A stretch of 55,953 bases of DNA, counting the filler, from Jimgerdemannia flammicorona (taxonomy: Eukaryota): the NCBI GenBank assembly GCA_003990765.1. It is 3 parts of 3 records of this genome, joined end to end, with 100 filler letters (N's around TTAATTAATTAA, not from the genome) between each part and the next. Parts side by side here need not be neighbours in the genome. Positions count along the whole stretch, not along the records: positions 1 to 18,587 come from RBNJ01002170.1; 2 more parts are not named here. One strand, 5' to 3'. Position 1 is the stretch's first letter. Each line of letters starts with the position of its first letter. Below the pieces are notes generated by a model that searched no databases, was not told the origin of the DNA, and saw only the letters and a list, made by a program, of their open reading frames with translations. Of this stretch, positions 64-52,139 are shown in pieces. A program made the translations under genes and the position numbers.

Positions 64-2120
64 TCAGACTCCACACATCTCCGTGGCCCCAATCTTCAGC
101 ACGGCGCCAGTATCGTTGAAATCCCATATGCCACAGTCCACGCAGCCTTCCTCAACAAAGCACTCGGGTACTTCTTCCCAAACAGTGAGGACTCTTTCGA
201 TCACGTCGTGGATCCGGTGCGACCGGATATCCACCTTCCAACCCGATTGGTTCACTACGTCGTACACGCACACGCGGCCTGTGTGGCACTGCGACTCCAT
301 CGCGAAGCCGCCATACCAGCAGCTGCTAGATGGGCCCTGGTTATAAAAAAATGAATGTTCCTTCAGAGATCCCCCTCAATATTCTTGCTCCAATAATCGG
401 CAATCACCTTCATTTCCAACACACACTCCTCAAACAAACTTACCGTGCACACACCCATGAATACCGGATCAGCCGTATGTCCAATATGCCACATCGGGAT
501 CTGGGAGTAATCCACCCCGGCCCCGTACGGAAGGTGGAGTCGACGAGCCGCGAGCAATTCGCCGGGAGCCTCGTACGTCACGGTCGGAAGGCCATATGTA
601 AGACCCAGCAGGCCAGCCAGGGCACCACCGAGGGAGTGACCCGTGGCCCAGATCGTGGCGTTCGTGTAGTCGTCGACGAGGTCCTCAAAAATTTTCTGGG
701 TGTGTGCAGGGGTGAGGCGAATAGGCAGCGATGGCAGTGATTGAGCTAGATTTCTGTCTGTTTTTCCTTTTGCTAATTGCCACCAATACGAAAATAAAGA
801 CAACAAAAGAGTAAGAAAGGTAAGAAAGCAAATACCAATGGATTCACACCTTGGCTATTGAATAATATAGCTCCTCGCTCTCCAAACTACTCTGCACGCA
901 TTCCCCATCGCATGAGTACTCGTCGCCTCTATAGCAATCACAGACCGTTTTCCAACTACTACCGACGCGCGCGCAGCAGCACGAGAAGAGGAGATTGTCC
1001 TGCGTAAAAATAATTTGATGGACCGGTAAGAGCATGAGTGGGGAATCATTGGATCTATGCGAGGGGCCGTGCAAGAGAATACAAGCTTTGGAATAAAGAG
1101 GGAATCGGCGACGGGGATGAGAAGTACCACTCCTAATCGACCCTAGTATACTGTTTTCCTAATAAGATAAGCATACACTTACATTAAACTTGTCTTTGAC
1201 AGCAGTATCTCCACCACCGAAGATTCCAGCGCTTGTGCCCTTTATCGCGATAACCAAGGTGGTGTTATCGGCGTCGCCAAAGATGTGGCCGCGGAGACCG
1301 TCGGTTTCCCATCCAAACGAGATATTCTGTCAGAATCGGTAGAAATGGCGAGTAGAAATGCAGTGGAAGAGAATTAAGGTGACAAGTGTGATCAATTGTT
1401 AGTCACGAACACCACGAACACCAGCGATGTTATGCTGACATTGAGTACTGCATTCCCATGACAACATCTATGTGAAAACAACGATCAAGGCAATTGATGG
1501 AATTGCCTGTAAGCTAAGATGCGACAACTCACCAAGCCCCACTTATCCTCCATATCATACCAATCTTCGCGCTTGTTCGCGTCATTGTACGCATTGTTGG
1601 TCATCTTTGCCAAGCTCACGACGGTATCGTTGTCCGTTACGTCGGGTAACAGGTCGAACCCCCACCTGTAAGCATCTACTCCCTTCGACTTCATAAAATC
1701 TCTCATCCCGCCATTTGTCCTGATGCTGCGGATCATCCGGAAGGTTTCGGCCGAGGGCTTGAACGTCTTGCCGATCTGCGAGTTGACCGTGAAGCTGGTC
1801 TCCTCGTCGGCCGAAAACTGTGCAGCTGAGAGTTGTCCAGCAGAGAAGTCGAGGCGACGGAAAGTGTTGCTAAATGGCCCGCCGGCGCTGCCGTGGTGGT
1901 ATATGCGCTTGAGGGTGAGGGTTTTGGGTGGGAAGGTTTTGGGTGGGAAAGGGTGGTCGCCTTCACGCGCGATTGGGGCATTGGGCAGGGGACCCTTGAA
2001 GGGTTTTTGTTCCGCAGAGGAGGATATAAAAGGGGGGAGAAGACAAAGCAGGAGAACGCATAGGGTGAACGCGTAGTTGGGAAGTAGCGGAGAGGCATGC
2101 CTCTGTGTTGTTTTCTGCAT
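64..2120 (-). CDS. ATG15: Vacuolar lipase Atg15 (class 3 lipase), 5 exons
   Basis: N-terminal hydrophobic anchor; motifs LAKMTNNAY, SFGWETDGLRGHIF, VIAIKGTS, DNLLFSCCCARV, lipase GHSLGG, HIGHTADPVFMGVC, MESQCHTG. GT-AG exons: 2120-1533, 1326-1183, 999-850, 695-444, 336-64. Confidence 0.93.
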
Positions 2121-2699
2121 GGTTGCGTCTTGACAGAAAGGTTAAAGAACAAAACAAGTCACACTATCCAATAGTCTGGGTCACATGACAAAACATTGGT
2201 GACATCTCGACCGAGAGCAAATATGGGGTGCTGCAACAAAACCATACAAAGTAAACATTTGACCATGACGCGAACGGCAACACGTGTTTCGCGTCTGTTT
2301 ACGCAGGTGAGTCAAAGAATTTTAACACTGTAATTACTGGCGACCCACAGTATCCAGCACCCGTACGCGCTTAGCTTAGCACTTGATGCTTTGCGACTCC
2401 TGCGGCTGTTGTTTAGAGCAAGACGCGAAGGATACTCTCTTTGACGTCGTCCTGATGGACGCCCTCTTAGTAGCCTACTCCTTTGATCTTGCGTCTAGTA
2501 TGCTGGACATGGTGCTTCCTACACCTGTTTGTGCTTAGCTAAGTCCTCAGTGCTTAGTGACTCTTGCAGCTGATGTTTGGTAGAGGAGGGGCGGGATATT
2601 CTCTTTGACAGAGTCCTCCACTGATGGACTTTCTTTCTGTAGTCTATTCTTTGATCTCTTTTACCAGAAGTATCATGTCAAGCTAATCTTTTTTCTTGT

Positions 2700-4400
2700 C
2701 TTCTTATATTCTGTCATTGTCAGTATCCTCTATTTAGCTAATATTTTATATTATTTTATTTTTATTTTTTTTGGCAGAAATGAACTTTAAAGATTATATT
2801 TTAAAGTATTTGAATTTTATTGATTATATAGAATAGAGTTTATAGTATTTGGCAGAAAATATCAATTATATGAGTATAAGTTTAGAAGATATTAGTAATA
2901 ATTTTATAGATTTTTTATAAATTAGATTAATAAATAATATTTATTTTAAATTAGTATAAAGGAAGGTTAAAAGACTTTATATGAATTATTATAGTATTAG
3001 ATATATATTAAATTAATAGTAAAATGAATATAAAGCTCTATATATATATAAGTATATGTATTTAATAATAACTCAAAGTATATTCCTTTGACTGTTTTGT
3101 ATTTATATTTAAAGACAAGATTTTAAAAGTTTATAACTTTTAAAATCATAATAACTTTTAAAAAAAAAAATTATAAAAAAAAAAAAAAATTTTTTTTAAA
3201 CAAATTAAGATAGAAAAACAATGTTTCAAAAAAACTTTAATTTATCTGCTAAATTATTTTAAAAGATGATCTTATTTATAATTAAGAAGATATTTAAAAC
3301 TATTATAAAATAGTTTATAGATTATAAAATTTATATCTTAAACTAGTCTATATATATAATTCTCTAATATCAATCTAATTGAATATTTATAATACTTCTT
3401 CAAAAGAAAGCTCAATATATATAAAATATCAGTAAAAAAGATAAAAGAGTTGTAGGAGTAAGTAAAGAATAAGTAGAATGATATTCTATAAGATATTTAT
3501 ATACTACTAGTATACTAAATATATTATTACAATAATTAAAGCTAAGAAAAAATATACAAAATATTAATTATTATTAATAAAGTGATTTAGATATCATCAG
3601 GATTATAAGTATACTAATGATTAATTTAACTTTAAAAGATAATAATTATATATAATTATTTAAATAAGATAAAACTAATATAGTTAAAAGCTTTAAACTT
3701 ACTTTATTACTAGTTAAAAATAACTTTAATATTATTTTTATTTAAGCCATAATAAATTTAAAAAGTAAAAATAATTTAATATTAATATACTTATATCTGT
3801 TATTGTAAATATAATAAAAAGATCTAGTATCATTAGACTAAATAAAGCTCAATATTATAATAGTAGTAAAGATTTTTAATACTTTAATATTCTGAATAAT
3901 TTGGAAATCTACTTTAAAAAGCTGTTTAATATATAAAAGTTTTAACATTTTCTTTTTATTAGTTCTAATTCCAGTATAGTAAAAAATCAAAAAGTTATAA
4001 ATAATCTTTTTCAGAAATTCAAGCTATTAAAAAGTAGTAAATCTAAGACTTCAAAAATTATAGAAAAAATCAAGATCTTGTTATTTTCAGTATTAATGCC
4101 TTCTCTTATAGAATTAAAATATCAGAAATATCTTTATTATAATATTTACCCATTTGTTCAGAATAAATTTAAAGATATTATTTATCTAAACCCAATCTAA
4201 TCTATACTCTTAATAAATAAAAATATTTATATTATTGAAGTTATAAAAACATAAATAATCAAAATAAAATAAATTATCTTTACTACTTTATCAAAGAACA
4301 AACAAAAGTCAAAGAGAGAAAACTAAAAATTATTTATAATTGAGATGAGTGTCTAATAGCTTCTAAACTCTTTTTGCTATGGAAAATGAGTGTGAAAAAA
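2700..4400. mobile_element. Extremely AT-rich degenerate repeat/transposon relic, family not identifiable
   Basis: Abrupt switch to very AT-rich, nearly CpG-free, TpA-rich sequence with no long ORF; same texture as the decayed Gypsy DNA at 44-54 kb. Boundaries are approximate. Confidence 0.45.
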
Positions 4401-11337: not shown

Positions 11338-11911
11338 ATGACCGCACAACTACAGACTGAACTCGACCTGGACTCTTTAGTTCACCTCGAAACAATGTAA
11401 ATATATTTTTTTATTTTATTTTTTTAGCCATTCGTACTCTCCGATCAGTATTCAATATGTAATTTACTCTCAGGTTCGAAGAGCTTGGCCACAAGGATGG
11501 TATCCGAGACGGCAGGCGCTCTGGCACTGTTGAGGGCCGTGTTCTTGGCTGCGAGAAGGGCTTCGAGCTTGCCCGAGAAGTCTATTTTTACTCTGGCTGT
11601 GCTGCCATGTGGTTGAGACTCACCGCCGCGTTCCCTGATCGGTTTCCTGCAAGGTTGGTCGATCGTGCAATGTGCTTGTCGGATTTCAACGAAAGATTCA
11701 TTCTGACAATTGTTTTTATGTTTTATTTAGAACTGTCAAGCAACTTCGTTCGCTGCAGTCCCTCATTGAGGCCTTCCCGACCGAGAACTCTCTCAACACC
11801 GAGATCCTTGCTTTGCTCGACAAGATCCGCGCCAAATACAAGGTTGTCACGTCGCTGTTGGGCGTCACGCAGAAGTATCAAGCCATAGATAAACCTGCCA
11901 TGACCTATTGA
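11338..11911 (+). CDS. LTO1: LTO1/ORAOV1-like Fe-S assembly adaptor (Yae1_N family), 3 exons
   Basis: Exons 11338-11396, 11474-11653, 11731-11911 splice to MTAQ...LETMFEELGHKDGIRDGRRSGTVEGRVLGCEKGFELAREVYFYSG...LLDKIRAKYKVVTSLLGV; the periodic GxxxG repeat is typical of Lto1/Yae1. Confidence 0.85.
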
Positions 11912-13410
11912 CGGCATCCCTAAACCTTGTCTCGGGCGAGGGTCCTCATAAGCGAGGGAATGGCGTTTTTCTGGTTGTAGGTTTCGAACCTTCTTCAAGA
12001 TATAGCGGCAGAACTGCTCGCATAACAAATGCATGTTTTCTTTTATTAGAATTGCGAGCAACAAATTTTTAGAAAAGTAGTCAAAAAGAATATTGATATT
12101 TTATGTACAGCTATCCACACTTGTAGTTTATATCAAGTTGGAGAGTGTTGAAGAAGGACCGACACTCTACTAGGAGAGGCGCCACCTGTCCATCTATCCA
12201 CGTTCCTGCGAGCACACTACTCGCGCCACCGTCGTAATATATACTCCCGCAAGCGCAGATCTCGTCCCTCAGGAACGCATGCCATTAAACGTACCATACT
12301 TCCCGTGAGCACAGGTGTCGTTCGCGTCAGAATGTTATTCTGCCGAAACACTTTTTCCGCTTAATGCAAGGAAAATAATGACAATGCAGGGTCGCGATTT
12401 TGTGTCGCAGGCATGCGGGGTCATGGATACAGCCTCTCGGAAATGTTTAGTTCGGATTTTAGATAGCATGTATATTTTAATGCTCATGTATGAGTATGGT
12501 TCATGAACATGAACATGTTTCCTTTTAGCAAAATCTTCAACATCATGATCAGGATTGATATATTTTTTTGTTTTTTGTTTTTTGTTTTAAAAAAAAAAAA
12601 GAAATTTGTCTCTAATAAAGTCGGATCTATCGCGGGGCGGTTTGTAACCTGTAAAGGGCGACCCTTTTGCTAATATATTCCTTAAGCGAAGCGTCGTAGA
12701 GCAACCTGAAAGTCACCTATTAACTATATTATACATAAAATTAGAGTACCCAAATTCCGATACAGTCAGGCTAGCAGTTTCTGGACGGTTCGGGCGTTTG
12801 TGTGTTAGTGTTGTCTTATGTGTTAGTGTGGTCATTTTTCGACCCTTTTTTTTTATATTTAATAGTGGCCTGTGTGAAGTATGCCACTAACCATCGTATA
12901 CACTGAAATCGCCATCCCTACCATAGTATGATGTATGAGCCTGTATACACTGAAACGCATGAATGACGTGCGTGATGGAACCAATCACGCTCTACCAACC
13001 GTCGTTTTTATCCCCTACCGTAAAATCCTTCGCTGTATACACTGTCGCCACTTCCTCTTTTTGCCATCTAAAAGTTGAGTATAATGTCCTATATGTTTGC
13101 ACACAAGAAAGCTTACTTATTTCGAAAGACGAACTTCTCTGCTTGCAGGGGTACCTTGGCCTAAATGTCCATAGATGATGCCAGCTTGTAGATACGGCGT
13201 AGGTTCGGATGCTGGAGTACCAGATCCCACCCAAGGAGAGTGCCATGGCGAGGACCGTTACTCCTGTGATAGGTGGGCACTATAAACATATAACGCAAGA
13301 TATCAACGGTCCATGCCTATTTTCAGTAGGACGCGTGACGCGTCAATTCCAAAACGTATATACCCGTCGACGGAAACTACGTACTTGTTTACGAATGGCA
13401 AGAACATATT

Positions 13411-13465
13411 GGTTTCGGCCCTTGCCAAAGGGCCTCATCAGTGAGCTTAAAGGCTTGCCCAGACC
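13411..13465 (-). ncRNA. Type III hammerhead ribozyme
   Basis: The minus strand reads GG-UC^-UGGGC-AAGCCUUUAA-GCUCA-CUGAUGA-GGCCCUU-UGGC-AAGGGCC-GAAA-CC. It has the full CUGAUGA/GAAA core, a GUC cleavage triplet, 5-bp stem I, 7-bp stem II and 3-bp stem III. Predicted cut is between 13462 and 13461. Confidence 0.85.
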
Positions 13466-13582
13466 GGGGTTAGTTTGTGTCCGGCCATACTCACAAAAAT
13501 GTTGGGAGAGAAAATCTACTTGCGCGGTTGCCAGAATAGATTTGACGCGTATAATAGGTCGACAGGTTTGCCCTGCGACGCT

Positions 13583-14945
13583 TCACTTAATGAATTTACT
13601 AGCAAAAGCGTCATGATAGATCCGTTTTTTCAGACACTCGACCGCTCTAACGGTCTTCGGACGCATCTGGTCCTCCGATTTCCAATACCCGCCCGACAAC
13701 AATTTTGTCCAGTTCCAGCAGATTGGGCCAGACCGCGGTCGAAGTTGAGAGAGTGCATCATCTTGTCAATGGAGACAGGCCTCAACCATGAGACCAGCCT
13801 TCCTTGCGACTGTGTTAAGCACCTCAAGAGCTTTGAGCGTCATGCTGGTTGAAAGCGTCGCCACCCGTGCCGGCATCTCCATCGTTCCAAGAATTGCCGA
13901 CGATTAGACGCCGGAAGTTGCTACGTTCTTGACAATTGTCGTTTGTGGGTCTTGAAATACGTGGGTGTCGCTGGAGAATGCGACGGTACAGCTCTCAATT
14001 TTTTTTATTTAAGAATAATATGGTATTTTATGATACAGAAATATTTCTATTTAAATAAAAATATATACAATACTTGAATGATATTCTTTTATTATCTATC
14101 ATTATATATCTTGCTCTTATTATGTTATTTATTATTATTATTATTATCTATTTAATTTTAAATTATCAAAATATAAAGAGTTGAAAAATCATTAGATAAT
14201 AAATTAAAATTTTAGTCAATTTTATCTTGAATATTAATTAAAGTTTATTATATTGTTTATAATATTAAAAGAGTTAATTTACATATATTAAAAAGAGTAT
14301 TTTAATAATATATTTATTTAATATTTTCTATTTTTATTTTTATTTTTATTTTTATTTTTACTCTTTAATAATTTGTTATAAAATATATATTATAAATAAA
14401 TAGCTTTATAATTTTTTTAATACTGTCTTTAAGTTTAATATACTGTTTACTAATATATCTTATTTGTTATTATAATAAAGTTTCTTTCTTAATAGTATTA
14501 CTGATATCCCAGCTGCTACTATTATTATGAATCCTTTTTTACATACATCATGCATGTGGCCCATTATGCAGCTCATCCCAATCTTTTGGTATTTTAAATT
14601 CTTCATAATCTGCTGAAACCTCTCACCCATGCCTTTTCGCTGCCGAGACCTCTCTCTGATGAGCCATCGCAACCTCCAAGCAGCCAACATGGCAAAAATC
14701 GGGCGTGTGCAATGTACGCGAGGTTCCATACAGCATTGATCGCACGTAACCCGCCTGCAATAGCTTCGTTGACGGATTCCATATCGCACCGAATTTCGGC
14801 ATTGAATTGAATGGTGTAACGCTTGGTCTTTCGCTAAAAATCATAGTAACATTTAATATAAACCCACTCGCAGTGGCCGACCCGCTCATTCACCAACAGC
14901 CCTCCAAATTTCTCGTAAACGCCAAGTAATTATAGGTACCGGAAC
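13583..14945 (-). pseudogene. Decayed protein kinase (TKL-like) pseudogene interrupted by an AT-rich insertion
   Basis: Ordered frameshifted fragments resemble kinase subdomains: *LLGVYEKFGGLLVNE (IV/V, ~14885-14935), EAIAGGLRAIN (VIa, ~14735-14770), EM..TGGDAF (IX, ~13850-13885), YWKSEDQMRPKTVRAVECL (XI, ~13630-13690), stop at 13583. No intact HRD/DFG was seen. Confidence 0.45.
13998..14610. mobile_element. AT-rich degenerate insertion
   Basis: Sharp compositional boundary at ~13998; very AT-rich and CpG-free; separates the putative kinase fragments. The right boundary is approximate. Confidence 0.45.
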
Positions 14946-15677
14946 TTTGAAAGAGGCAACTCCGACGTGGAGCAAACAAAAAGTAAAACGGGGGGCATAT
15001 CGTCTTGACAGGGCGCACTTTACCGCTCCTTCGGCCGGATCAGATGCATCGCCCGTTCTGCCGGGCGTGAATTTCTTTTTCTCGGTTATACATACTCTTA
15101 TCCCAAATCCAGGTGCGAACGCGCAGAAATAAATAAATAAATAAAAACATCCGACAACACCGACATCTATCAAATCCCAGCGCAGACAATATCGTCGATG
15201 CGACGAGATAGCTCCGCTCTCGCGGGCGGACAGAGCCGTTCGAACCCGTAGCGGGGATGAACGTATCGTGTGCTACGACGCCGGGCCCGTCCGGATCAGT
15301 TGTTATCTCGCGGGATCCCTGTGTACACCGGGTGTATGAGAAACATACACAGGTATCCGTATCTTATATACGTAGTTATTTTATCAGTTAGGCTAATGTG
15401 CGCGCCTTTTGGCGTAGAGCCGGTTGCGTTTCCGATGAATTTTATTATTTTTTGAAGATTCGCAACATTCTGTTGAGAGTTTTTTTTTTTTTTTTTTTTT
15501 TTTGGCGCCACATTCTGATCTTGTGGGCTTCTCTAGAACGTGTAAGGTCGTTTCTTTGTTGGCTTTGCCACAACATTTATTAGTATGTATGAATGCCTTT
15601 ATATCAATAATTCAAAATCGCCATCGGAGAACCAAAATAGAGCGATTCGAATGAGAGCAGCGGTACACAGTGCCCGA

Positions 15678-17265
15678 TCAGAAGAATTCGCTACCATCCT
15701 CCTCGCTCTCGCTCTCCTCACTCTCCTCGCTCTCCTCGCTCTCCTCGCCCTCCTCGCCCTCCTCGCCCTCCTCGCCCTCCTCGCCCTCCTCACTCTCCTC
15801 ACTCTCCTCACTCTCCTCACTCTCCTCACTCTCCTCACTCTCCTCACTCTCCTCACTCTCCTCGCTCTCCTCGCTCTCCCTCCTTTCCTCGCTCTCCTCG
15901 CTCTCCTCTCCGGACGAACCCTCCTCACCGCTATCCCATTGCATCTCTTTCATCGCTCCAGCCTTGCGGAGCTTCACCTGCTCCTTCATGGGGGATTTAT
16001 CTACGTGGGATCCGGGCCCAATATCAGACACGATTTGTCAGCTTTCAGTGAAAACGCCACACACGATGTCGAAAAATGAGCGTGCAGTCTTTCCAATCTC
16101 AAAAGCACACATGACTACTCACGATACAGCCTCTGCTCGGCCGGCATCCGCTCCTCGGAGGATGCGTATTCGTCCACAGCACGAAGGATCCGCATTCGAT
16201 CTGGTTTGGCAGAGCATTCCAAAGGGATGCGGCGGAGAGCTGTTAGCAACGGAACAAAGAATCCAGCGGTTCATCATTGTACATCTCCCCGTGCACCATG
16301 GGAAACCCAAACCTAAGGTCGAGAAACGTACCGCATATGGTCATTATCTTTTGCGATTCGTACAATGCCGACAATCGTTTCGACGCCGTCTCGATCACTC
16401 TGTGGGATCATCAAATGGCGTCAGATATCAACAACCCGCCTGGTAGGATCACATACACAGAAAGGCAACCAACCCCAAATCCGTGGTATTCATACCTTTC
16501 CGGGAAAATCCTGGCGAGTGAGGCCGCGTTGAGCACCGTGATCCAGTCCATGGGTATGGATCGGCTCCTGAAAGCCCCGGTTTCGTTGCGGATGCTGTTT
16601 TCGTTGCGGAGATGGTGGCGTGTCGGAGAGATCGCCTCGTGAATGTGCCCGAGAACACACATTCTCTCCCGATACAAGAACAAACTCGTGCCAAAACCAT
16701 TAGCCATATCCGTTACCAATTCCACCAATCCCATTCTTACCGCGTCTGGTTGTTCTTCAGCATGTGTATCACCACGGCCAGTAGGTCGTGCAACGCCTCT
16801 GCCGCCTGCTCGCCGAACCACTGCCTCTCGATTCTCGTAGCCTTGTCTTCTTCCACATCCTCATCGCGGGACCGTTTGCTTCCTTTCCTGAACCGTTCCA
16901 CAATCGCCCTGGCCTGCGCCCTGAATTCGCCGTCGTGATCGGGTTCTTCCAGGTTGGAGGGACGGAGAAGTTGGGCGGCAAAGGTGGGTTTTGGCGGGAG
17001 CAGGAGGGAGGTACGGGTGGCGGATAATTCGTCGTCAGTGTCGTTAACGGAGACGTAGAAGCGATCGGATCTGAAGGGGATGGGCGTTTGGGGGGAGAAT
17101 GTAGGGTAGGAAAAGTCAGCAGTCAGTGGGAATAAGGTGTTTGGTTTGGTATATAACAGACCTTGGTAGTTCGTCAGGTAACAGCGGCCATGGTGGGAAT
17201 TGGTTATATGTAATGAGGTTGGGGTTGTTGAGGTTGTTCTTGACAAAGAGCAAGATAGGGTCCAT
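15678..17265 (-). CDS. Rrn9-like protein (putative Pol I upstream factor family) with an acidic ESE-repeat tail, ~6 exons
   Basis: Spliced model MDPILLF...FPPWPLLPDELPR|SDRF...MDWITVLNAASLARIFPER|VIETASKRLSALYE...(ESE)n...EFF*. The WPL and DWxxVLxAAxLA...VIxxAxxR segments resemble fungal Rrn9-domain proteins. GT-AG introns keep the frame. Confidence 0.55.
15700..15910. repeat. 9-bp coding tandem repeat (ctctcctca/ctctcctcg/ccctcctcg)
   Basis: About 20 units; encodes ESE/EGE on the minus strand. Confidence 0.95.
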
Positions 17266-18587: not shown

Positions 18588-18687
18588 NNNNNNNNNNNNN
18601 NNNNNNNNNNNNNNNNNNNNNNNNNNNNNNNTTAATTAATTAANNNNNNNNNNNNNNNNNNNNNNNNNNNNNNNNNNNNNNNNNNNN
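18588..18687. other. Assembly gap with artificial TTAATTAATTAA spacer
   Basis: 100-nt N run with a six-frame-stop linker in the middle. Confidence 0.97.
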
Positions 18688-37272: not shown

Positions 37273-37372
37273 NNNNNNNNNNNNNNNNNNNNNNNNNNNN
37301 NNNNNNNNNNNNNNNNTTAATTAATTAANNNNNNNNNNNNNNNNNNNNNNNNNNNNNNNNNNNNNNNNNNNN
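37273..37372. other. Assembly gap with artificial TTAATTAATTAA spacer
   Basis: 100-nt N run with the same linker as the first gap. Confidence 0.97.
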
Positions 37373-38775
37373 CCCATCCCGACATCACCCGAAAAGCAGT
37401 CACCTATGCCAGAACCGCGCTCGCCGGGAAGCTCGCCAAAGCCAGAGGGCCCCACCACAGGCACCGAGGACCTGCAGGTAACCTACACTGAGCACTTGAC
37501 GCCCAAGGTCGGCCGACTCCCTACGTAGCCCGAGACACACCGAGACAGCACCTTGTTGACGACGGCAAAAGGAAGAAGGCGCCGCACCAAAACGGATGCA
37601 CTCCAGACGCAGCCGAAGACACCAGAAACCGCGAAAAAGTGGAGAAGACACCGATCGGACACCGATAAAGAGGCAACTCATCACCATTGCCCTCCTCCCA
37701 CCATGCCCATGCAGGCACAGCAAACCAACCCGAGGTAGAGGGGGTAATAATAAGGGAAAGGGGACTCGGAAGGTTGCCTACCAAACCTTGTGACCGGTAA
37801 GGTAGCGGAGAAAGGAGCCTGCCGCTCCAGCTATGCCTGTCGAACACCGGCTATGTCGACCCCAATGACATAGACTAGACTTGTCTGCTCACCAGGGCTG
37901 GATCATCATCTACACGTGAGAGCACACCTATGCGTCAGATCTAGCAGTACCGGGACTGAATAAAGAATAGCCCCCCGAACCCCAAAAGAAAGCCCAAGGC
38001 AAAGAAAAAACCCCCCAACCAACCAACAGGGAACAAAGTAGATTCAAAGCGGGTGAGTAAAGGACTTATACGTAGCACCTTCCTCAAAGGACTTATATAT
38101 GGGCTAGGGACTGAAAAGACCCCACTCCCACTCCCCGAGCCTGCGGGCCTCGATCACGTTGCCGTGTCAGCTCCCGGTTCCAGTCAGGTACTGCCAAATA
38201 AGGAAGGTCTCACTCCCCAAGCCTGCGGGCCTCGATCGCGTTGCCGCGTCAGCTCCCGGTTCCAGTTGGGTACAGCCAGGATGCCGGCCCCTGCACCACC
38301 CCACCCTCCACCAGCCAATCAAAAGGCCCCACTGAAATATTGTCCGCCCTAGCCCCGATAACCGCCCCCAGTCTGGCACCCCACTGGTTCACCGTAATCA
38401 CCCTTCCTCCTATCTGTGACGGCCATCTCCCCTCCCAACCCGACATCACCCGAAAAGCAGTCACCTACGCCAGAACCACGCTCGCCGGGAAGCTCGCCAA
38501 AGCCAGAGGGCCCCACCACAGGCACCGAGGACCTGCAGGTAACCTACACTGAACACTTGACGCCCAAGGTCGGCCGACTCCCTACGTAGCCCGAGACACA
38601 CCGAGACAGCACCTTGTTGGCGACGGCAAAAGGAAGAAGGCGCCACACCAAAACGGATGCACTCCAGATGCAGCCGAAGATACCAGAAACCACGAAAAAG
38701 TGGAGAAGACACCGATTGGACACCGATAAAGGGGCAACTCATCACCATTGCCCTCCTCCCACCATGCCCATGCAG
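37373..38775. repeat. Direct tandem repeat, period 1061 bp (one full unit 37715-38775 plus a partial copy 37373-37714)
   Basis: 37373-37714 matches 38434-38775 with ~11 substitutions. The unit contains an internal 68-nt repeat (38129-38196, 38211-38278) and a duplicated aaaggacttata. Confidence 0.9.
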
Positions 38776-41700
38776 CCTAGACAAGTACCTAGTAGACCGC
38801 TCTCCCTCCTCAAGCCCCTGCCATCTAAGCCGGGCTACCATACCTCACATATGAGTCACCTCCTCCTCTCACAACACCTGTTGTAGTTCTACAACCTCCA
38901 ATTTCACCCTCACTAACCTCCAATCCTCCACCTCATCAGATGCAAGCAAATCTGCCCACTCCAACTGCAATCTTTGCAGCCTATTGGAGGCAGACTGTAT
39001 TCGCCTCCTCCTCCTTCTCCCTGCCTCCCTACCAGCTCCTCCCTAATAAAACCTCACAGCCTCCTTCAATCTCATCCAACGGACACCCACAGATAAACCC
39101 TCCTGCCTCCAAAACGGAATCTTTGTCTGTATGTCCTCTACCCACGAGTCCCACAACCTCTTCTCGGCCAGCAGGGAGGAGTTAAGATGCCAATGTCCGG
39201 GTCCATCTCCACTCCCCCCAAACCACCCCTGCCCAATCAGTCCCCAGTGATCAGAACATGGGCACCACACTACCTCAAAAGTCTTCCAGACATCAGCACC
39301 CCAACATTCAGCTGTCAGAATCCAGTTAATCCGTGTCCCTAGGCCATTCACCCAGTACGTATAGACCCTGGCATCACCCCACCATGTTCGGCCCATATCT
39401 CCTAAGGAGCTAAGGTTTTCCACCTCCTCTCATGCATCCAGACCACCACTCCTCCCACCAGCATTTCTTCCTCCATCAGTCCTATCCAACCGTAAATCTC
39501 AAACCATGTTAAAATCACCACCAAGAACATCAACCCCTTCCTCCAAGAGAATGCCCTCCTCCAGTAGTTCCTTGATCCATGCAATCCTCTCTTCCCTAGC
39601 CACTGGGCAGTAGCATGAGCCCACCCTCACTGATTCTCACCCTGGCTGGTGCCATTCGCCCCAGACCAGTCGATCTCCCCAGTTCTTGATTCTCTCCAAA
39701 TCTCTCCTACCCTTCTTCAACAGAATCACCACTTTACCAAACCAAGCAGTAGTCCCACCCCATTCTCTAGTCCATTCCACCCGATCATCCTCATCCTCAC
39801 ACCGTATATCCTGCAGTAAAAAGAGATCAGCCTCCAATCTCTTTAGCCAAGTAAAAATGTTCTTACGTCACCCAGATCCTCAAAGACCATTCACATTGAG
39901 AGATAAAATGTTAGTTGTACTGTTCATGGAGAATATTGTTAAAGATTAAACCTCTCCTCTACAAATCCACACCCAAGTCCACTTGTGCCAAATCTAAGTC
40001 ATATTCTGCAGCCAGTTCCTTCTTCTCAGCTCCCTGCGCCTCCAGCCCCTTCAGAAGTTCAACCATTGCCCCATCCTCTTTCTCCTCAAAGTCCTCTCTA
40101 TACTCCCTACAGGCCTCCTGCCAGAACTGCAGACCATGGCATTCCACCAAACAGTAGGCCGCCTGCTCACCTGCAACAACCACCAGCTCCGTCTTCCTTA
40201 CCTCATCCACCTCATAACCCTCTTCCTCCAGTAGTATCATAAGAATCTCCATCTGCAGCACCTCTACCACTCCCCCACCTCGCAGAATCTGTGCCCAGTG
40301 CTCCTCCAGCATGACCCTCAGATCCACTTCCCCCAACACCTCAGCTGCAAGGTTATCCATCACCTTGCTCATCCACAGCAGATTCCTGATCTCCTTCCCT
40401 CCAGGGGTCCCTGGCCACCCTGTATCCAGCATCGTAGTATCCACACCCACACTGGCATCCTCATTCCACTTCTCTTCTGGGACATCCACCAGCTCATCCT
40501 CTCCAACAGCTACCACCTGGCCCCCTTTCGCCACATCTGGGACCCCAAAGGTAACCCGCTGGGCCCCCTTCATCAGTACATCTTCTGCTGCCCCTCGCTG
40601 CCCCACCGGGCCCCTCCTGATAAGTGGGGGGGGGGTACTATCCGACTCCTCCTCCCAGACCTCAAAAGTACCATCTGCATAGGGATCCCTGCCCAGCACC
40701 TTTGCAGCCCATTCTTCCATCACCACTGCCTCCTTTCCACCTTCACTAGCCCATATACTGGCTTTGACACCTCCAGACCTGACAGCCCCATCAACCTTCC
40801 TCTTCTTCCCTCCTGTCATACTCGCCAAGAGCTCCTTCTGCCTCAAGCGCCCCTGAGCCAGCTCCCACTGCCTCTTGTCAGTGCAGATACACTTCCCCTC
40901 CACAATCTCCAAATGCGTCGACTCCTCAAAGAGCTTCCAGGCCTTTGCCCGCCATTCTACCGCACCACTCATCTCCTTCAACACCTCCAACAAATCCTCC
41001 TCCTCCTCCTCCTCACTCCCCTTCACCCTCGACACCTTACAAATAAAGGCCCCCCACATCAACACTAAGGGCCAGTCACCAGTCTTCCCTGTAGCCTCCC
41101 TCCCTGCCAGCCAGATCCTGATATCAACATTGCCAGTCCTGATCATTGTCCCCTCCCACACCTGGAAGCCAATATCCACCACATCTCCATACTCCACCAT
41201 CACCTCCTCTACCCTCCTCCTCGTCTCCTCCTTTGTCACTGTGGGCACCCCCTTCACCAGCAGCTGCACCACCCTGGGGTCCCACCTCAAACAGCGTACC
41301 ATGGGGACCACCATCTCTCCAACTGCCACTCCTGCCCTCAGTGCCTCTTTCAGTAGGCCCACCTCTTCAAAGCCCACCTCAACTCCCTCCAGACCCTTCA
41401 GGAATTTCACCAAAGCTGCCCCAGCCACCTGCTTCGAGATAAGCCCCAAGACCATCCTCGCCATCACCCCTAAGCCTCGGAAGCACAGAGTCACTGCAAA
41501 CTCCGAGATCGACTTCTTGAGTAATGGTGCTACTGCCAGCTCCATAACACCATCAGCCAGGTCCCCCTTCCGCATTGGAACCCCCTGCCCCACCTGGCCA
41601 TCAGCCGTCACATCTCTTTTTTTTTCCTGATTCCCCATCACCCCCCATCAATAGTCACATCCCCAGCCACCGCCCCTCCAGCCCCTACTCCTGTAATTCC

Positions 41701-42081
41701 AGCCTGAGCACCACCCCCCCTCCCCAGGCTTGCCTTGCCCTTCCCCTCAGCAGCACCAGCCCTATTACCAGCCAGCCACCCACTCCCCTTGACCTTGTCT
41801 GCGAAGCTTGGAAACCCAGATCTTCCCCCATTGTCACTGGCAGACCCTTGCCCTCCAGCCCTGCCTCCTTCTCCACCATGTCCTCCCACCAGCAGGCCCC
41901 TCATGCTTCCCCCCAAGCCAGGTCCTCTCCCCACATGCTGCCATCCAAACGCTCCAGGGCCACCCTGCCCAGTATACACCTCAGGATTCTCGTCGGTAGC
42001 CATAATACTAGTAGCTTGTCTCCAGAAACTGCATCGAAAGTGTTGCCAAAAGATTGTGTAACCTGAATGTTACTGGAGAAA
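38734..42081 (-). mobile_element. L1/Tx1-type non-LTR retrotransposon, 5' part (short 5'UTR, ORF1, endonuclease region of ORF2)
   Basis: ORF1 42003-39959 with a frameshift near 41638. ORF2 starts at 39927: MNSTTNILSLNVNGL..FLLQD..GGDFNMV..TRINWI..SDH..GPGHWHLNSSLL..RWQGLEEGERSTRY (APE endonuclease plus L1 linker motif), broken by several TGA stops. Confidence 0.9.
39959..42003 (-). pseudogene. LINE ORF1 (Tx1-like, frameshifted)
   Basis: The 42003-41638 ORF (MATDENPE..SFADKVK) continues after a frameshift into the 560-aa ORF 41641-39959 (LLVKGVP..YGDVVDI..IRTGN); it ends 31 nt before the ORF2 ATG. Confidence 0.75.
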
Positions 42082-42190
42082 GTATAGACCCTGGTGTTGC
42101 CCCACCATGTTCTGCCCATATCCCCTAAGGAGCTGAGATACTCTACCTCCTCTCACACATCCAGACTACCACTCCTCCCACTCATATTTC
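42082..42190 (-). mobile_element. Fragment of another copy of the same LINE (endonuclease region)
   Basis: Homologous to ~39359-39468 (gtatagaccctgg...ccccaccatgttc..cccatat..cctaaggagct...ccactcctccca). Confidence 0.85.
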
Positions 42191-43560
42191 TCTTTTTATT
42201 TTTTTTTTTTTTTTTATAGTCACTTGGACTGCCCTTTATTTCCGATCTATTCTATAATTACAACCATCCCACCCCCTATCCAATCCCCCTAGGGGGTCCC
42301 CCCCCCCCTACCCCTTCCCTGTGAAAGGCCACTTTGTCTAACACCATCTCTATCTGCCCATCACTCTATACATAGATCTTTTCCACCAGACCATAACGTC
42401 ACCCACTCTGGGGATCCCAATCTACCTACCACCCAGTCAGCAGATCCCTCATCAACCCCTCCCACCATAATAACTTCTCCTATAAATCTATCTGTCACCC
42501 TTCCTTGAAAACAAAGAGCCAATGATCAGCCAGTTCTACCCATACTACTAAAACCCACCCTACAGTGAGCCAACTATTGTCCACCCCACCTACTAGCCAA
42601 GATTTCAAATCCTCCCAGCAGCCTCTCACACTATCCAGCCTCCTCTCTACACCCAGCCTATTCTCTACTTCTCTCCAAAAGTCCCCCAAAACCTCACACT
42701 CTCTTAGCCAATGTTCTGGTGTCTACACAAATTCTCCAACTTGTCCTACATTATAACACTCCTCACAATCTAATTGGCTGCCTTTCACCAGATACTCTAC
42801 ATGAAAATTCAACATAACATTCCTCCACAGTATTCTCCACCATACCATCCAGAACTTGGGAGAAAGTCACCTCTGTACCTCAGCACTCCATAATCAGACA
42901 CCTGCCCAGTCCTACTCCTCATCAATCCTTGCCACCTGCTAGCCACTTGGCTAAAGATCCTGGCCAAGACTCTGCTGACACTCCACTCCATTCTCAATAT
43001 CAAACTCAGCAAGCAGAGTACCCCCCAGAAGAAGTCTGTCTCATTACCATATATTAGGACCCAATATCATCTCTCCCTCATTACCTCACCAGCACAGGTC
43101 AATTCTGTGTACTCCATCCACCACCCCCTATCAAAAACCCTTAAACCACATCCATTGACTTCCATTCAGTCCCACCAAAGAGAGCAAATCTCCTGAGAAC
43201 TCTTGAGGGGAGGATCTCATCTCTTACACCTTCTGCAACAGTAGCACCCAACCCCCTCCCTGCAGTTCAACAGCTCTCTTCAACCATCAGGCTTGCAGGC
43301 AGTACAACCTCTTAGGGAAATCCACAAGGCCCAGACCTCCCCTAACCACCAGTATTGCAAGAGTATCCCAACTGATCTGGGACCTCCTCCCTGCCCAAAT
43401 TCAATCTCTAGCCATCTTTATCAGCCTCTTCACCACCCAAGCTGAGAAGTCTAGATGATATACCATATACCATAGCTTGGGGAACAGTAGACATTCAGAA
43501 TTAATATCTGCCCTGTCAGAGAGATATGGTGGCCCCCCCACCCTTGAAGGGCTTCTCCCC
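42191..43560 (-). mobile_element. 5'-truncated L1/Tx1 LINE 3' end with poly(A) tail
   Basis: GWGGHHISLTGQILILN, WDTL..GGLGLVDF..QA*WLKR, zinc-knuckle remnant TPEHWLREC..FWREVE; poly-T on the + strand at ~42193-42215. Confidence 0.85.
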
Positions 43561-43564
43561 AAAT

Positions 43565-46500
43565 GGTCACCCTACTCTCTCACTACAAAGAGAAGGAACT
43601 CCTACAAGAGGAGGCTGCTTTCCATTTATCCAAATGAATCAAGAACTATACCTTGCTCTCATCTAGAGCCTGTACCATAGAAGCCTCAAAAAGATAATTC
43701 AGCTAGCTCACAAGCTATTTATTTAAAGAAATTTTAAGAAATTTCAAGAAGGTGATGACAAACTTTAGAGAGTTGAAGGAGACTAATATACCTGAGTTTT
43801 ACAAAAAGATTAAATACAGAAGATACTCATAACAAACTATAATCAGAATGTATACTGAGGAATTGGAGCCACTATTGTAAGAATCAAGAAGAGATACTAG
43901 TAGTTAAAAATAAGAAAACAAATTTCAACACACATTTAATAATATGATATCTGTCAAAGATACTGACAAATACCAACTGACAAAGCACCACTAATACTAA
44001 TTACAACACTAGTTAGAACCTTTCAAAGACTAGGAATAGACATCATTGACTCTCTGCTAGTAATTAATCAGAGAAAATGCTATATTCTCACCATTGAAGA
44101 TCATCTGATGAAATAGCCTAAAGTTCTTGCCATTGAGACTACTGATACTCAGACAATCATTGAGATCTTATATGATGAAATTTTCAGCTACTACAGTGTC
44201 CCTAAGGAAATTATCACAGACCAAGATCAGGAATTTATTAACAAAGCCATGAAGACCTTTGCAGCCAACTTTAAGATCAAACTGCATCTAATAACAGCTT
44301 ATCACTTATAAGCAAATAGACTTACTGAATAAATGAACCAGACCATTAAGCAAGACCTCAGTAAAACTAGAGATTAATTGAATTGGGACATCTATCTTCT
44401 AGTAATCCTATTCAGCATCTATACTTCAAAAGCTACTACTACTCAACAGACCCCTTTCTATTTGGTGTATAGCCAAGAAGTACAAGACTCTACTGAACTA
44501 ACTCAGCTAGACTTGGCAAAATGAGTCACTGAAGAGATCACCTAGTTATATATAAAGTATGCCAATAAGTATAAGGTTTTATTGCTAAAATACAAGAGTG
44601 ATAAAAGAAGTACTATGACCACAAAGCAGACCTCAAACCCCTACTTATTAGATAATAAGTCTTGGTATACTACACTATCATAGAGGGGAACTGGAGTACC
44701 AAACTCAAACTGAAATAGAAAGGACTCTATCTCATCTATCAAAAATTCACAAACTATACTTATCAACTTAAGACTCTGAATAGAGTTATACTCAAGACTA
44801 AGATATACTATAACTATATAAGATCTTATTACTCAGTAGAAGTAAAATACATTGAATAACTCCATTCACTCTATCTGTGTTATCTCTATTAGAGAATAAT
44901 AGATACTGACATTACTGAAACCAATCTCAAGTCTATCTATATAATATATATAACTACTAGAAATTATCTCAGATGGTAGAAAAATCCATTTCTGAGAGAT
45001 TCAAATTCCCAGCCATAACAATGGGAGCCCTCACCCCAGACAAAGATGGCTAGTTCTTACAAATATACCAATAGTTTTAAAAAAAAGAGAACTAAGATCT
45101 GCTATTTCTGTATAACTATCACTACTGAGAACAGTTATAATTTTGCAAGAGGCAGATGTGATAACACCTTTGAAACCAGTGACATCAGAATTCAGAAGAC
45201 TGCTTTGACTTCACAAGCTATTAGTTACAAATTATAACTCAACACTAACTCATTCTGATTATAAGATGATCTGTATCTGAACTCATAATAACTTATGATA
45301 ACTCTAGTAGTATACTACTACTAGTTAGATGACCCTACTCTCTGAACTAAAGAAGAAGACCTTCAAGATATAAAAGAAGCATCAAGAGAAGAAGTACAAA
45401 GTATTAACTATAAATAGAAAACCTACTATAAAACAAAATATCTGTTATCTGCCAAATAGTTAGATTAAGGAGCTATCTAGGTCTATTAGTTCAAGAACAG
45501 ATATTAACTGATATTAAGAGGGCAATGAGGCTGTATATAAGAAGAATCTCTAGTCTGAACCTCTATATAAAGGGCCTCTATCACTATATCCTCAACTGCC
45601 AAGAAATAGAGATAAGAATTATTACTACTACTGAGTATCTTTAGATGTAATAAGAATATGAGCTAGAATATTACCTCCATCAAGAGTTCATATAAGCCAG
45701 CTCAAGAAATTGTGAATGCCACAGATATAGACAGATATATATAAACAGAAACTGATCAAAAGAGTCTACCAGATCTTCAGACATATACCCTGGACCATTC
45801 TTAACCTAGAATATATCAAAGTCTCTGATATTCAAGAATTGATAAGTTACTTTATAGACTACTTTGAGGAAATAGTTATAGAAGAGGTCCAATCTACTAT
45901 CATAATTAAAAGTGATAAGACTCAAGACCTTTGGAACTCCATCTTAAAGGACAATCCAGACCAATTTATTTATGATCTGATTGTACTATTTCAAGGCTCT
46001 CCCTTGAGAGTCTGCTATCTCTAGAATTTTACAGATATTCTCTACTTTGTAGATAACCTCACTATTGACTAGAGATCTCAAGAGTAGAATGATCTTATAT
46101 CTTTTAATAATATCACCCTCTCAGACAACTTGGAGAATGGTGATAACTTACTTATTTTATTAGAAGATGATATCAATAACTTCCTTTCTATACTTCCAGA
46201 GCCCACTACTAACTTCAGTACAACTGTGGGGAATATAAAAAATGATTTGGCCAGACTTTCTAAAGAAAATACAAAGGAGGATGAGGATGATATAATTCCA
46301 GTCATATTGAATTTTAAGATATATGAGAATAGTTCTATTAGCCAAATTGAGTAAGTTAGTTAGTTGTATAAATAGTAACTATATATTAACTAGCTAAATT
46401 TGTCACAAACATAAAATTAGTCTTATCTAGTTAGTTAGTCACCTGAATTTCAAAAGTATACTAAATAGTATCTTCTAGTAATTATGAGTTATAGTCAATT

Positions 46501-47830
46501 ACCTAGCCTTATTCTTAGCCTGAAAGTTGTATAAATACCCCCTAATCTGTAGTGAATAAATCTTAGTCAATTAGTTCTGAAAAATAAGAGAAGTTAAGTA
46601 TAAGAACTTTAGAAAAGACTCCAAGAGCTAAAGGAATTTACTCTTGCTGCTACTACTATAAAATTAAATATGAGACTATAGAAATTAAGATACAAGTCAA
46701 GACCACTTTATTCAAGATATAAGTTAGTTTGAGTTTGAAGTAAAAAGAATTATAGAGAAATCTACTGCCTCTAAGAGATAGAATAATTCTAAAAATAAGA
46801 TAACTAGAGTAATAACTACTTAAGATTTGAGTTAAAGAATTTCTCTTACTACAGAATTCAAGACCACTATCAGAAATAATTACCATTAGGATATAAGACT
46901 CTGGAAAATATCAGAATATCACTAGGAAACATAGAGAATCTGCAAAATGATCACCAGGAAACTCTAGAACAACTCACTATCATCATAAAAATTAGATATG
47001 AGATTATAGAAATCAAAATTGAGATCATAATTCAAGTTCAGAAAAACTTGCTAAAAAACTTAGTCAAGGATACTAAAATAATTGCCAATCTACCAGAAGA
47101 CAATAAAGTACTATCAAGAAATATAGAGAATCTGTGATATATATTCTTTAACCTTTCATCATTCTGAACATTCAGTCATATGATTAATGACTTGTGATAT
47201 ATAAATCACAACTCAGACAAATTGAATAGCAGTTAAAGTAAACATTGAGCCAGAATATTTTTAGTAGAAGAGATAAATAGTATATAAATAACCAGTGGCA
47301 TATTGAGCTATATAATTTAATAAAAAATCCATATAAATTATATACTATATTATATAGAGATATTGGAGAACAGAAGGTGAAAATTCTCATTAATATAGAA
47401 GTAGCTATCTGTATCATTACCAAATAATTTCTAAATAACCTCTAGTGGCTCATTGATGGACTATCTAATTTTAGCATTATAGTAGCAGAACTCAATCTCT
47501 TAGAAAAGTACAAAATATTACCATCTCTCTTAGATATATTTAGTTCTCTATTTCAAAAGCTATTGTTACCAAAACTGTCACTTAGAACTTAATCCTTAGT
47601 ACTAACTAGATGAAGGAAATAAATACAATTATTAATATTGGCCAACAGGTACTCAAATTTAACTATAGAGAAAAGAAGTACAGAATCAAGGTAACTAGCT
47701 ATAAGTAATCAAAGAAAAAGAAGAAGATTATTATCTGGGAAGAGTATACCAGTAGTGAAGAATCTACTATAAAGGAAGAAGAAGAATCTGAAGATAGAAA
47801 TGATTCCAGACTCAATTTATATATCAATCT
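43565..47830 (+). mobile_element. Heavily mutated Ty3/Gypsy LTR retrotransposon (integrase, 3' region, LTR-like segment, then gag/protease of an adjacent copy)
   Basis: Integrase remnants PFQRLGIDII, VPKEIITDQDQEF, TAYHL*ANRLTE*MNQTIK (~44019-44350) and a decayed GPY-type motif KLKLK*KGLY (~44700); noncoding ~46355-46610; protease-like KVKILINIEVA (~47375-47405). Confidence 0.8.
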
Positions 47831-47974
47831 AGTAGATGACAGACTGTAAGAGAGTACTTTCTTAGAGTATTGTTATATAATTCTGGAAGAGTTTCTGGAA
47901 ATTCTAGAAGACTGTTTTCTTAAGATTAAGATCAATTTTATATAGAGTATATCTTCTATGTAGTACTCTGAATG

Positions 47975-48130
47975 AATGGAATTGATCCAGATGAGATTTG
48001 ATTCAGATTCATCATACATATAATGGATTCGAATCAACTCAGATTAGTCTTGTGATCTGATCCAGATTGATCCATCTGGATTGATCCATTCAGATTGATC
48101 TATCTGAATTGATCTATTTATATTGATTAT
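47975..48130. repeat. Degenerate ~14-bp tandem repeat (gattgatccatctg-like)
   Basis: Repeated attgatcca/gattc units. Confidence 0.7.
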
Positions 48131-49199
48131 ATGAAATCTTTAATGACATCACCCTTTCTTTTGTTCATTTTTCACTCTATTTTTTTTCCTACCATACTTT
48201 AGTAATATCACTCTTTCTTTTATTCTCTCTCTTCTTTTGTTCTTTCTTTGTTCTTTTTCTTTGTTTTTTTTCTTTTCTACTATATTATGAGTAAACAAAA
48301 CAGTAGTTCTTAATTGTACATTGGTCCAGTCTATTCATTTTTTTTACCCTACAATAATCATCAAAAGAGAGAGTATTTGAGGTAGAAATGCACTCTCTAC
48401 TGACCATATTAAATTTTTTCTCATATGGGTAGCACACAAGCTGCTCATCAAGAGCCAAAGGGATGACAGCAGTGGTAATGGTAGTGGCAATGGTGATGGT
48501 GGTGGCAATGGTGGAGATGAGGGAGAATTCCAGCAACAACTCATAGCAGCCCTTCAGATCTCAGAATTCACAGACCTCACAGCTATGTACACAGTAGCCT
48601 TTTTGGAGCAGCTGATAGTAGATGTAGGTCACTCATTCTACTGTCACTTGTTTACTTGTATTTACTTTTTTAATTTCCTCCAGCACAACCCAATTCATCT
48701 TATGTTTTTCTTAAGGTCTACAGCTCTACAGTAAGATCTACTGACTTTATTTGCAATATCTGGTCAAGATGAAGAAAGGCTGGCAGATATTGTGGGGTAT
48801 GCCTTTGGTAGCTGAGCTGTTGAGTCAATATATTGTATGATGGAGATCTCAAAAGGAACAGAAGTAAGCCTTCATGAGCAATCTTATGTAACTTGTGCAA
48901 CTCATTGGTATGCAACTCACTCACTTATGCTCTTTTTCTGAAATATCTATCTTTGTGTTTTATTTAACTTTATTTTTATGTAGTCTCTCCTAAAAACACC
49001 CACATGACACCTGTATGCAATTTGTCTGCACACAATTCATCTGTATATATATATATATATATAAAGAAGGAAATTCTATCTATAAGATATGCTGATAATA
49101 TACTTAATAATTATATAGAAGGAGAAATATTATGTATATAATAATATTATATTAGAGTTTTTCTACAAATAGTATTAATAATTTATATAAGAATATCAC

Positions 49200-50900: not shown

Positions 50901-50914
50901 CTAGAGTGAAGTAA

Positions 50915-51240
50915 TAAATCTTATCAATTTGGTAAATTTAGCAAATTTAACATATTTTATAAATTTGATATATTTTACAAATTTGACATATTTTACAAAT
51001 TTAATATATTCTGTAAATTTAATATATTTATCTATAAATTCAATATATTCTACAAATTTAATGTATTCTACAAATTTGACATATTTTGCAAATTCAATAT
51101 ATTTTACAAATTTGACATATTCTGCAAATTTGCTATATTCATCTACAAATTTAATATATTTTACAAATTTAATATATTTTGCAAATTTGATATATTTAGC
51201 AAATTTGATATCAATATATTCTACAAATTTGGTAAATTTT
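50915..51240. repeat. 18/21-bp tandem repeat (aaatttgacatattttac-like)
   Basis: More than 15 units; reads as repeated KFxEYx/NLxYFT peptides, probably a decayed coding repeat of a transposon. Confidence 0.85.
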
Positions 51241-51459
51241 CCTCAGATATTCTATTATTACTTTTTTATAATAAGTTCAACTCTGGAATTTATTAATGAT
51301 ATATCATAAGATGAAGATTATAGAAGCTTATATAATTTACAAGTACTGAGTATGTTCCAAACTGATAGTTATAATGATCACAGAAATATAACATTTTTCT
51401 ACTAAGAAATCAAAGCTGTATACCAGCAAGCTAAGTAAAGATATATAAATTGAAGCTAC

Positions 51460-51560
51460 ATATATATTGAATAGAAGCTAAAGCTGTATACTGAATAGAA
51501 GCTAAAGCTATATATTGAATGGAAACTGGAGCTATATACTAGATAGAAGACTAAATAATT
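51460..51560. repeat. 24-bp tandem repeat (tatattgaatagaagctaaagctg-like)
   Basis: About 4 degenerate units. Confidence 0.7.
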
Positions 51561-52139
51561 AAAATAAAAGCTAAATAGTTCATAGTAAACATTATTACAT
51601 CTAGTCACTTTTTCATTATTCTTCCTTTTATTCTCCATCTCTACTATTACTGTTATTTATTTGCCACTATTACTACTATTTTGCCACTATTATCTCCTAT
51701 CTCTATTACTAGTTACTATTGTTAATACTATCTATCATCTTGATTAGTTCAATTGTCTAATTGCTATTGCCTTATTATTATTGTCTCTTGCTAAGCCTGA
51801 ACTTAAGGATACTAAGTTGGTAATCTTGAAATATGAGTATCTGAAGTTTGAAAGGATTGAGGAAGAGATCAGATAGCAGAAAGAAATTGAATGAAGTTAG
51901 TGAGAAGAGAGATTCAGTTTTGAGAAGTAGAATTAGATAAGGTTAGTAAGAAGAGAGATATAGTTTTGGAGAGCAGTAATAGGATTATTAAATAAAAGAT
52001 ACTGCCTGGTATTATAAAAAAAAAAAAGAGATTTGAAAAGGTCAGGAAAAGAATGTTGAATCTATTATAGTTTAGGAGTAACTTAATTTCAAATCTAGTA
52101 TTCAATAGTACTTTATATTTATATAAATTATTTATATAT

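Follow-up and report, generated by a model that had tools for sequence, protein, structure and literature searches.

Hammerhead ribozymes are known by the thousand. Those of type III, which the Rfam family RF00008 (Hammerhead_3) describes, occur in viroids, plant satellite RNAs, and plant retrozymes, and there are bacterial and phage examples as well. In retrozymes the hammerhead lies in two direct long terminal repeats and is accompanied by target-site duplications. To our knowledge, the retrozyme-like elements without a reverse transcriptase (RT) that have been described so far have hammerheads of type III if they come from plants and of type I if they come from animals. The plant retrozymes of Cervera et al. 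2016 are said to be non-coding, transcribed, RT-less repeated elements containing a type III hammerhead.

These plant retrozymes are cited in the accessible part of PMC10886601. According to Perreault et al. 2011 (PMC3088659), a number of eukaryotes, among them the fungus Yarrowia lipolytica, have hammerheads in interspersed repeats. Fungal Penelope-like elements carry type I hammerheads with a large helix III beside a reverse-transcriptase ORF, according to excerpts of Cervera and de la Pena 2014 (PMC4209133). Within the open full-text literature, we found no type III hammerhead repeat family in fungal nuclear genomes. Genomic hammerheads of fungi were represented in the literature searched only by the repeats of Yarrowia and by the type I motifs that Penelope-like elements carry, and two reviews were silent on fungi by term search of the text that they make accessible (PMC7761336 and PMC6155905).

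Here we describe a hammerhead motif on the minus strand of the window, by which we mean the whole 55,953-nt stretch of DNA that was analyzed. With moderate confidence, we read this motif as a true type III hammerhead inherited within a probably transcribed, multi-copy interspersed repeat of a fungus-like nuclear genome. One more hammerhead motif would be ordinary, because thousands are known; a type III hammerhead on a probably transcribed repeat family in a fungus-like nuclear genome is less so. If the family is active, it would provide a handle on the movement and processing of such repeats in fungi and would add cases that the Rfam threshold misses.

Compared with RF00008, the motif has the full core, the GUC triplet, closed helices I and II, an open helix III, and helix I and II sequences near the consensus, but it carries 7 extra nucleotides in loop I, forms 3 of the 7 model helix III pairs, and sits in a host that looks fungal. 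The Yarrowia lipolytica repeats are likened to it by description only, drawn from the accessible text of that report: both are multi-copy genomic repeat hammerheads in a fungus or fungus-like genome. The hammerheads of fungal Penelope-like elements, as far as the excerpts describe them, share the fungal host and the association with repeats, whereas the present motif is of type III, has a short open helix III, and has no RT in the window. Reverse transcriptase, endonuclease, transposase, and polymerase families were all absent from the 96 ORF translations scanned (11 + 85), and the hammerhead is of type III, so that the locus does not show the features of a Penelope-like element. The ORF scans thus agree with the earlier note, which had reported no Penelope ORF in the window and no second copy of the ribozyme; neither our descriptor nor Rfam revealed a second hammerhead.

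The motif resembles the plant retrozymes in that a repeated, probably transcribed element without its own RT carries the type III hammerhead. In contrast to them, the window has a single hammerhead, with neither direct repeats around it nor TG..CA ends accompanied by a target-site duplication. The locus therefore does not qualify as an LTR retrozyme, and it may be a solo or truncated retrozyme copy. Nor does it have the makeup of a viroid-like or ambivirus-like element, since no other ribozyme was found on either strand and no polymerase family was detected.

The earlier note had read the minus strand from 13465 to 13411 as a type III hammerhead with a GUC triplet and a specific cleavage site, and our reading reproduces the motif, its coordinates, the triplet, and the predicted cleavage site (Table 1). 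All 11 of the 11 core nucleotides are present along with GUC, a UH site. The junction is that of type III, with helices I and II closed by loops, helix III open, and the G10.1-C11.1 and A15.1-U16.1 pairs in place, although helix III is marginal. Helix III has only three pairs because A13410 faces C13466. With 3 bp, compared to 4-5 bp in other copies, and a pairing probability near zero, the description of the ribozyme as intact was too strong. The note had further proposed a contact between the two loops. GCC in loop I is indeed complementary to GGC in loop II on reading the sequence, but when loops of the same sizes are paired at random, 21% of the pairs offer a contact of at least three base pairs. 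The GCC/GGC contact is therefore at chance level and is a lead rather than evidence; pseudoknot contacts are attributed to ~40% of hammerheads in the accessible text of PMC3088659.

Table 1. Coordinates of the hammerhead, its parts, and the surrounding features, counted along the window
Feature	Position	Strand	Basis or remark
Repeat family with hammerhead	13062..13987	.	Piecewise cover by diverged same-organism contigs
Type III hammerhead, whole	13411..13465	-	RF00008 33.6 bits, model positions 1-54; sole descriptor site in window
G16.3 G16.2 U16.1 C17	13465-13462	-	Sequence reading
GUC triplet	13462..13464	-	Sequence and cmscan alignment; predicted cut 3' of C17, between 13462/13461
Helix I and loop I	13442..13461	-	13461-13457 with 13446-13442, 5 bp including one G-U
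Loop I, 10 nt	13456-13447	-	Closes helix I
CUGAUGA core (C3-A9)	13435..13441	-	Sequence and RF00008 alignment
Helix II and loop II	13417..13434	-	13434-13428 with 13423-13417, 7 Watson-Crick pairs
G10.1-C11.1		-	Base pair at foot of helix II
Loop II, 4 nt	13427-13424	-	Closes helix II
GAAA (G12-A15.1)	13416-13413	-	Adjoins C15.2, C15.3 (helix III 3' strand, to 13411)
Helix III, open	13465-13463 with 13411-13413	-	3 bp
A15.4	13410	-	Opposite C16.4 (13466); helix III stops here in window copy
Yae1-like gene	11463..12556	+	PF09811 Yae1_N, E 5.1e-7; end about 12556
Yae1-like gene intron, 77 nt, GT..AG	11652-11728	+	11651 joined to 11729, one contig each in X1 and X2
Conserved block, right inverted-repeat arm	13552..13612	-	87 nt upstream of hammerhead; highest contig depths here
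Left inverted-repeat arm	12660..12722	+	Second, inverted fragment of conserved block 13552..13612

A search with the Hammerhead_3 covariance model, a check that the earlier note had proposed, gave a full-length match below the gathering score. The alignment spans all 54 model positions, at 13469-13407 on the minus strand, and has an E-value of 0.002 for the whole window searched against 4227 Rfam families (1.8e-5 on 501 nt and 1.4e-4 on 4001 nt); its 33.6 bits fall short of the gathering score of 48.5. In the whole-window Rfam search, this match ranked first among six and was the sole ribozyme, and no family, RF00008 included, reached its gathering score anywhere in the window. The low score is due to the 7 inserted loop I nucleotides and to four unpaired outer helix III columns on each side.

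We also searched with a descriptor of our own (helix I and helix II of at least 4 pairs each, helix III of at least 3, loops of 3-20, and a UH site), which matched exactly one site on both strands of the window. Chance expectation was modeled with 3,000,000 random CUGAUGA contexts at 45% G+C, the equivalent of ~4.6e10 nt. These contexts yielded 61 descriptor sites, 8 of which had at least 15 pairs like the window motif. At that level of pairing, the chance rate is 1.7e-10 per nt, corresponding to 1.9e-5 per window or ~0.014 per 40-Mb genome.

Folding predictions are less favorable to the window copy. For the 68-nt stretch, the minimum free energy structure (-18.2 kcal/mol) is a non-hammerhead fold with a z-score of -0.05 relative to shuffled sequences, and the hammerhead fold, at -17.1 kcal/mol, lies 1.1 above it. 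Helix II has a pairing probability of 0.92-0.97, with 0.67-0.68 at its last pair, in 241-nt and 421-nt contexts; the corresponding values for helix I are 0.28-0.37 (241-421 nt contexts). For helix III, the probability is 0.1 in the 68-nt stretch and approximately zero in the 121-, 241-, and 421-nt contexts. Longer transcripts are thus predicted to leave the 3-bp helix III of the window copy unpaired.

The ribozyme was originally taken to stand alone, with nothing in the window to explain it. Contigs of the same organism do not support this view, as diverged copies cover 13062-13987, including the hammerhead. Contigs of four runs (X1-X4) were aligned to 11500-15400 at 82% likeness; X1 and X2 are two sequencing runs of this organism, guessed to be RNA, X3 is a soil metagenome run, and X5-X8 (shares 0.04-0.05) were left out. 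Over this interval, 20 of 27 X1 contigs are less than 99% alike to the window and 19 fit in part only, and in X2 the counts are 27 of 33 and 27, respectively. Because many diverged, part-fitting contigs cover 13062-13987, we regard that interval as a repeated family that includes the hammerhead. Cover peaks at position 13613 with seven different X2 contigs, and family contigs also fall on 12677-12708. The cover by X1 and X2 contigs is blank at 13989-15400 and 12810-12940, and these blanks carry no weight.

Several contigs show that the family takes in the hammerhead. A 3018-nt X2 contig matches the window only at 13295-13460, and in a 151-nt X3 contig the two stretches that correspond to 13411-13443 and 13498-13521 are separated by 73 letters instead of 54. 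The depth at 13417 is 105.8 in X1, where the window-identical contig accounts for 12.8, and 337.4 in X2. Loop I is crossed by three X2 contigs, going by their summed depths (30.1 + 52.9 + 57.4 = 140.4).

Among the differences listed inside 13411-13465, none lies in CUGAUGA, GAAA, or GUC. C15.2 (13412) is replaced by U in one X1 contig and still pairs with G16.2. At C11.1 (13417), X1, X2, and X3 each have one contig with U instead; the base still pairs with G10.1, and the change weakens a normally conserved pair in these copies. As for indels, those given here for the hammerhead are among the rows listed, besides which 32 further indel rows exist: position 13427 of loop II is missing in one X2 contig, loop I has indels at 13449 and 13455 in other copies, and 13457 (C1.5, in the fifth pair of helix I) is deleted in another copy. 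One X2 contig loses its likeness at 13460, and, judged by where the match stops, it may represent a copy without the GUC and without the 5' side of helix III.

The copies also vary at the outer end of helix III. Two contigs of X1, with 44.2 of a depth of 57, and two of X2, with 43.2 of 43.2, have a T-to-C change at 13410 (+ strand). Four X2 contigs and one X3 contig diverge from the window immediately before 13411, and the X2 consensus there, with an agreement of 0.71, has CC as its last letters, equivalent to minus-strand GG. Since G at 13410, or GG after 13411, stands opposite C13466 and C13467, helix III has 4-5 bp in other copies. The pair-preserving variation consists of two C-to-U changes opposite G and an A-to-G change at 15.4 that gains a pair, which are few events. 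This is the pattern that a selected ribozyme would show, and it hints weakly at selection; the chance that the six listed events would spare the 13 core and site positions is ~0.2. Multiple copies are themselves no proof of selection, because common descent alone makes repeat copies alike in any of their sequence.

Spliced contigs of the Yae1-like gene in both X1 and X2 indicate that both runs contain cDNA. X1 contigs are identical to the locus at 13328-13442 and 13659-13987 (0 differences), and another differs once over 13235-13357. Given these identical contigs and the cDNA in X1, the locus is probably represented in RNA. DNA carry-over in X1 is possible, and the contigs do not prove transcription and tell neither the strand nor the ends of such RNA.

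The interval 13592-13647 stands apart in depth. Its summed X2 depth is ~3000, compared to 35.5 for the neighboring gene, and depth subtraction assigns most of this to one contig. Some copy of the block, which has no match among the Rfam families, seems to be part of a very abundant RNA.

The analysis shows the motif, its statistical weight, and diverged copies in which the core is kept; we infer that the repeat is transcribed from the minus strand of the window, that its RNA cleaves, and that cleavage has a role in processing. The repeat, transcribed in the sense of the hammerhead, would give an RNA that adopts the three-way junction fold and cleaves itself 3' of C17. The downstream product would then begin with nearly the whole ribozyme and bear a 5'-OH, and the upstream RNA would be freed with a 2',3'-cyclic phosphate. 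Such cleavage could trim the repeat RNA from longer transcripts, as hammerheads of other repeat and retroelement families do. By analogy, the best reading is that the hammerhead of this repeat would work like repeat-associated hammerheads elsewhere and would be a new fungal member of that group. The window copy itself is probably a solitary member that is slow or inactive because its helix III is shortened (3 bp vs 4-5 bp).

A rival explanation, which we consider unlikely, is that the motif is a chance match or a fossil that does not cleave in the cell, having been carried along with the repeat or representing a ribozyme that is dead here. A chance origin in one window is very unlikely. On the scale of ~250,000 windows (2.8e10 nt), at which the random model predicts ~5 equally good motifs, the motif alone cannot settle the question. 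The subthreshold score, the 3-bp helix III that is predicted to stay unformed, the z-score of -0.05, and a loop match at the chance level of 0.21 all fit this explanation. Infernal gives a lower expectation, however, as its E of 0.002 scales to ~0.1 for one family over the same 2.8e10 nt. Moreover, the core is retained in other copies of the family and helix III is longer there, which would be unexpected for a chance match. A more specific form of the repeat reading, which we find doubtful and put forward tentatively, is that the family is a fungal counterpart of the retrozymes. It would then be a non-autonomous, RT-less repeat whose hammerhead cuts out unit RNAs; these RNAs, which might be circular, would be returned to the genome as copies, and what the window contains would be one decayed unit.

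The DNA could instead derive from a hammerhead-bearing circular RNA replicon of fungi, viroid-like or ambivirus-like, that was reverse-transcribed into the genome, with some of the contigs being the replicon, but this seems quite improbable. Fungi do have viroid-like RNAs and RNA viruses with ribozymes, according to the accessible text of PMC13725137, and the 3018-nt X2 contig that shares just 13295-13460 with the window would suit such a molecule. Against this, neither 11400-15400 nor the whole window contains a second ribozyme of either polarity, and no polymerase-like ORF was found among the translations scanned. Two pattern scans of viral contigs returned no copy of this hammerhead: a pattern with its helix II and GAAAC gave 0 matches, and a helix I pattern gave 4, all with a different helix II. 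A genomic repeat better fits the many diverged copies in differing contexts and the inverted partial copy nearby. We regard it as very improbable that the ribozyme was co-opted at this one locus as a cis-regulator, cleaving the 3' UTR or a read-through transcript of a neighbor. The accessible part of PMC3088659 describes hammerheads in gene contexts, such as mammalian introns, and the motif does lie between a Yae1-like gene and other ORFs. That gene, however, is on the opposite strand (its GT..AG reads on +), the same sequence recurs in many other contexts, and relatives have an 11-nt insertion after 13230 that disrupts the minus-strand ORF lying downstream of the motif (12995-13279). The inherited repeat hammerhead remains the reading that we prefer.

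The motif sits in ~1.9 kb between the Yae1-like gene (+) and the ORFs at 14463-15272. Pfam assigned no family to the ORFs that overlap or adjoin it (13209-13616+, 13475-13852+, and 12995-13279-). ORFs in the window encode Clr2, Yae1_N, calpain, cytochrome b5 with FMN dehydrogenase, and ribonucleotide reductase small chain domains, as well as Sel1, jacalin, and lipase domains, all in exon-like pieces. Judged by its sequence, the window resembles fungal nuclear DNA. Searches of the window turned up no tRNA or tRNA-like parts and, on both strands and at E up to 10, no second ribozyme family. Around the motif, we found no direct repeats, no solo-LTR signature (TG..CA ends with a 4-6 bp duplication), and no element boundaries or target-site duplication.

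The conserved block upstream of the hammerhead has a partner in inverted orientation. The two arms are 84% alike over 50 nt (E 1.4e-8), with a local score of 65 compared to at most 25 in 100 shuffles, and no hammerhead follows the left arm. The inverted repeat was considered as a pair of transposon ends and rejected, since the likeness of the family runs past the right arm beyond 13647. Between the left arm and conserved sequence at 13062-13296 lies a cluster of the 10-mer CAGTGTATAC, which has a palindromic core, GTATAC, and occurs three times in ~130 nt (12900-13040, minus strand). Just upstream of the repeat, in terms of the minus strand, ~570 nt of A/T-rich low-complexity DNA occupy 13990-14560.

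A metagenome scan with a loose hammerhead pattern returned at least 121 loci. In a blastn comparison of 12601-14000 with 120 metagenome loci among the matches listed, at most 41 nt were shared, nearly all of them hammerhead core, and the metagenome loci listed are therefore unrelated hammerheads. When the descriptor was applied to 124 loci among the matches listed (120 metagenome and 4 viral), it gave 31 type III hits on 28 loci. Compared with these descriptor hits, which mostly have a helix I of 6 bp and a helix II of 4-5 bp, the window motif has 5 and 7 bp, respectively. A protein search with the 79-aa minus-strand frame that runs through the motif produced no candidate. Three metagenome loci (L024, L090, and L098) were considered as relatives for their near-identical helices I and II and were set aside, as theirs is another hammerhead (40.1 bits) within a 609-aa ORF. 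In L024, this type III (RF00008) hammerhead lies at 2168-2228, antisense within the ORF (1592-3421, minus strand).

Other aspects of the window's organization were observed in passing. Positions 18588-18687 and 37273-37372 each comprise two 44-N runs flanking 12 nt, the first 12 nt being a TTAATTAATTAA-type palindrome with stops in all frames. These segments look like artificial linkers joining three contigs, and neighborhoods across the joints are perhaps unreal; the hammerhead lies within the first joined contig (1-18587). Blocks of 23-33% G+C (2001-4000, 13990-14560, and 44001-54000) alternate with gene-bearing DNA of 45-57% G+C. The interval 38001-44000 has a very strong negative GC skew of -0.38 to -0.50 and contains a 562-aa minus-strand frame (39962-41647) without a Pfam family. 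Finally, a tandem array with a 9-bp period and at least 22 registers extends over 15672-15968, inside a plus-strand ORF (15655-16443) that likewise has no Pfam family.
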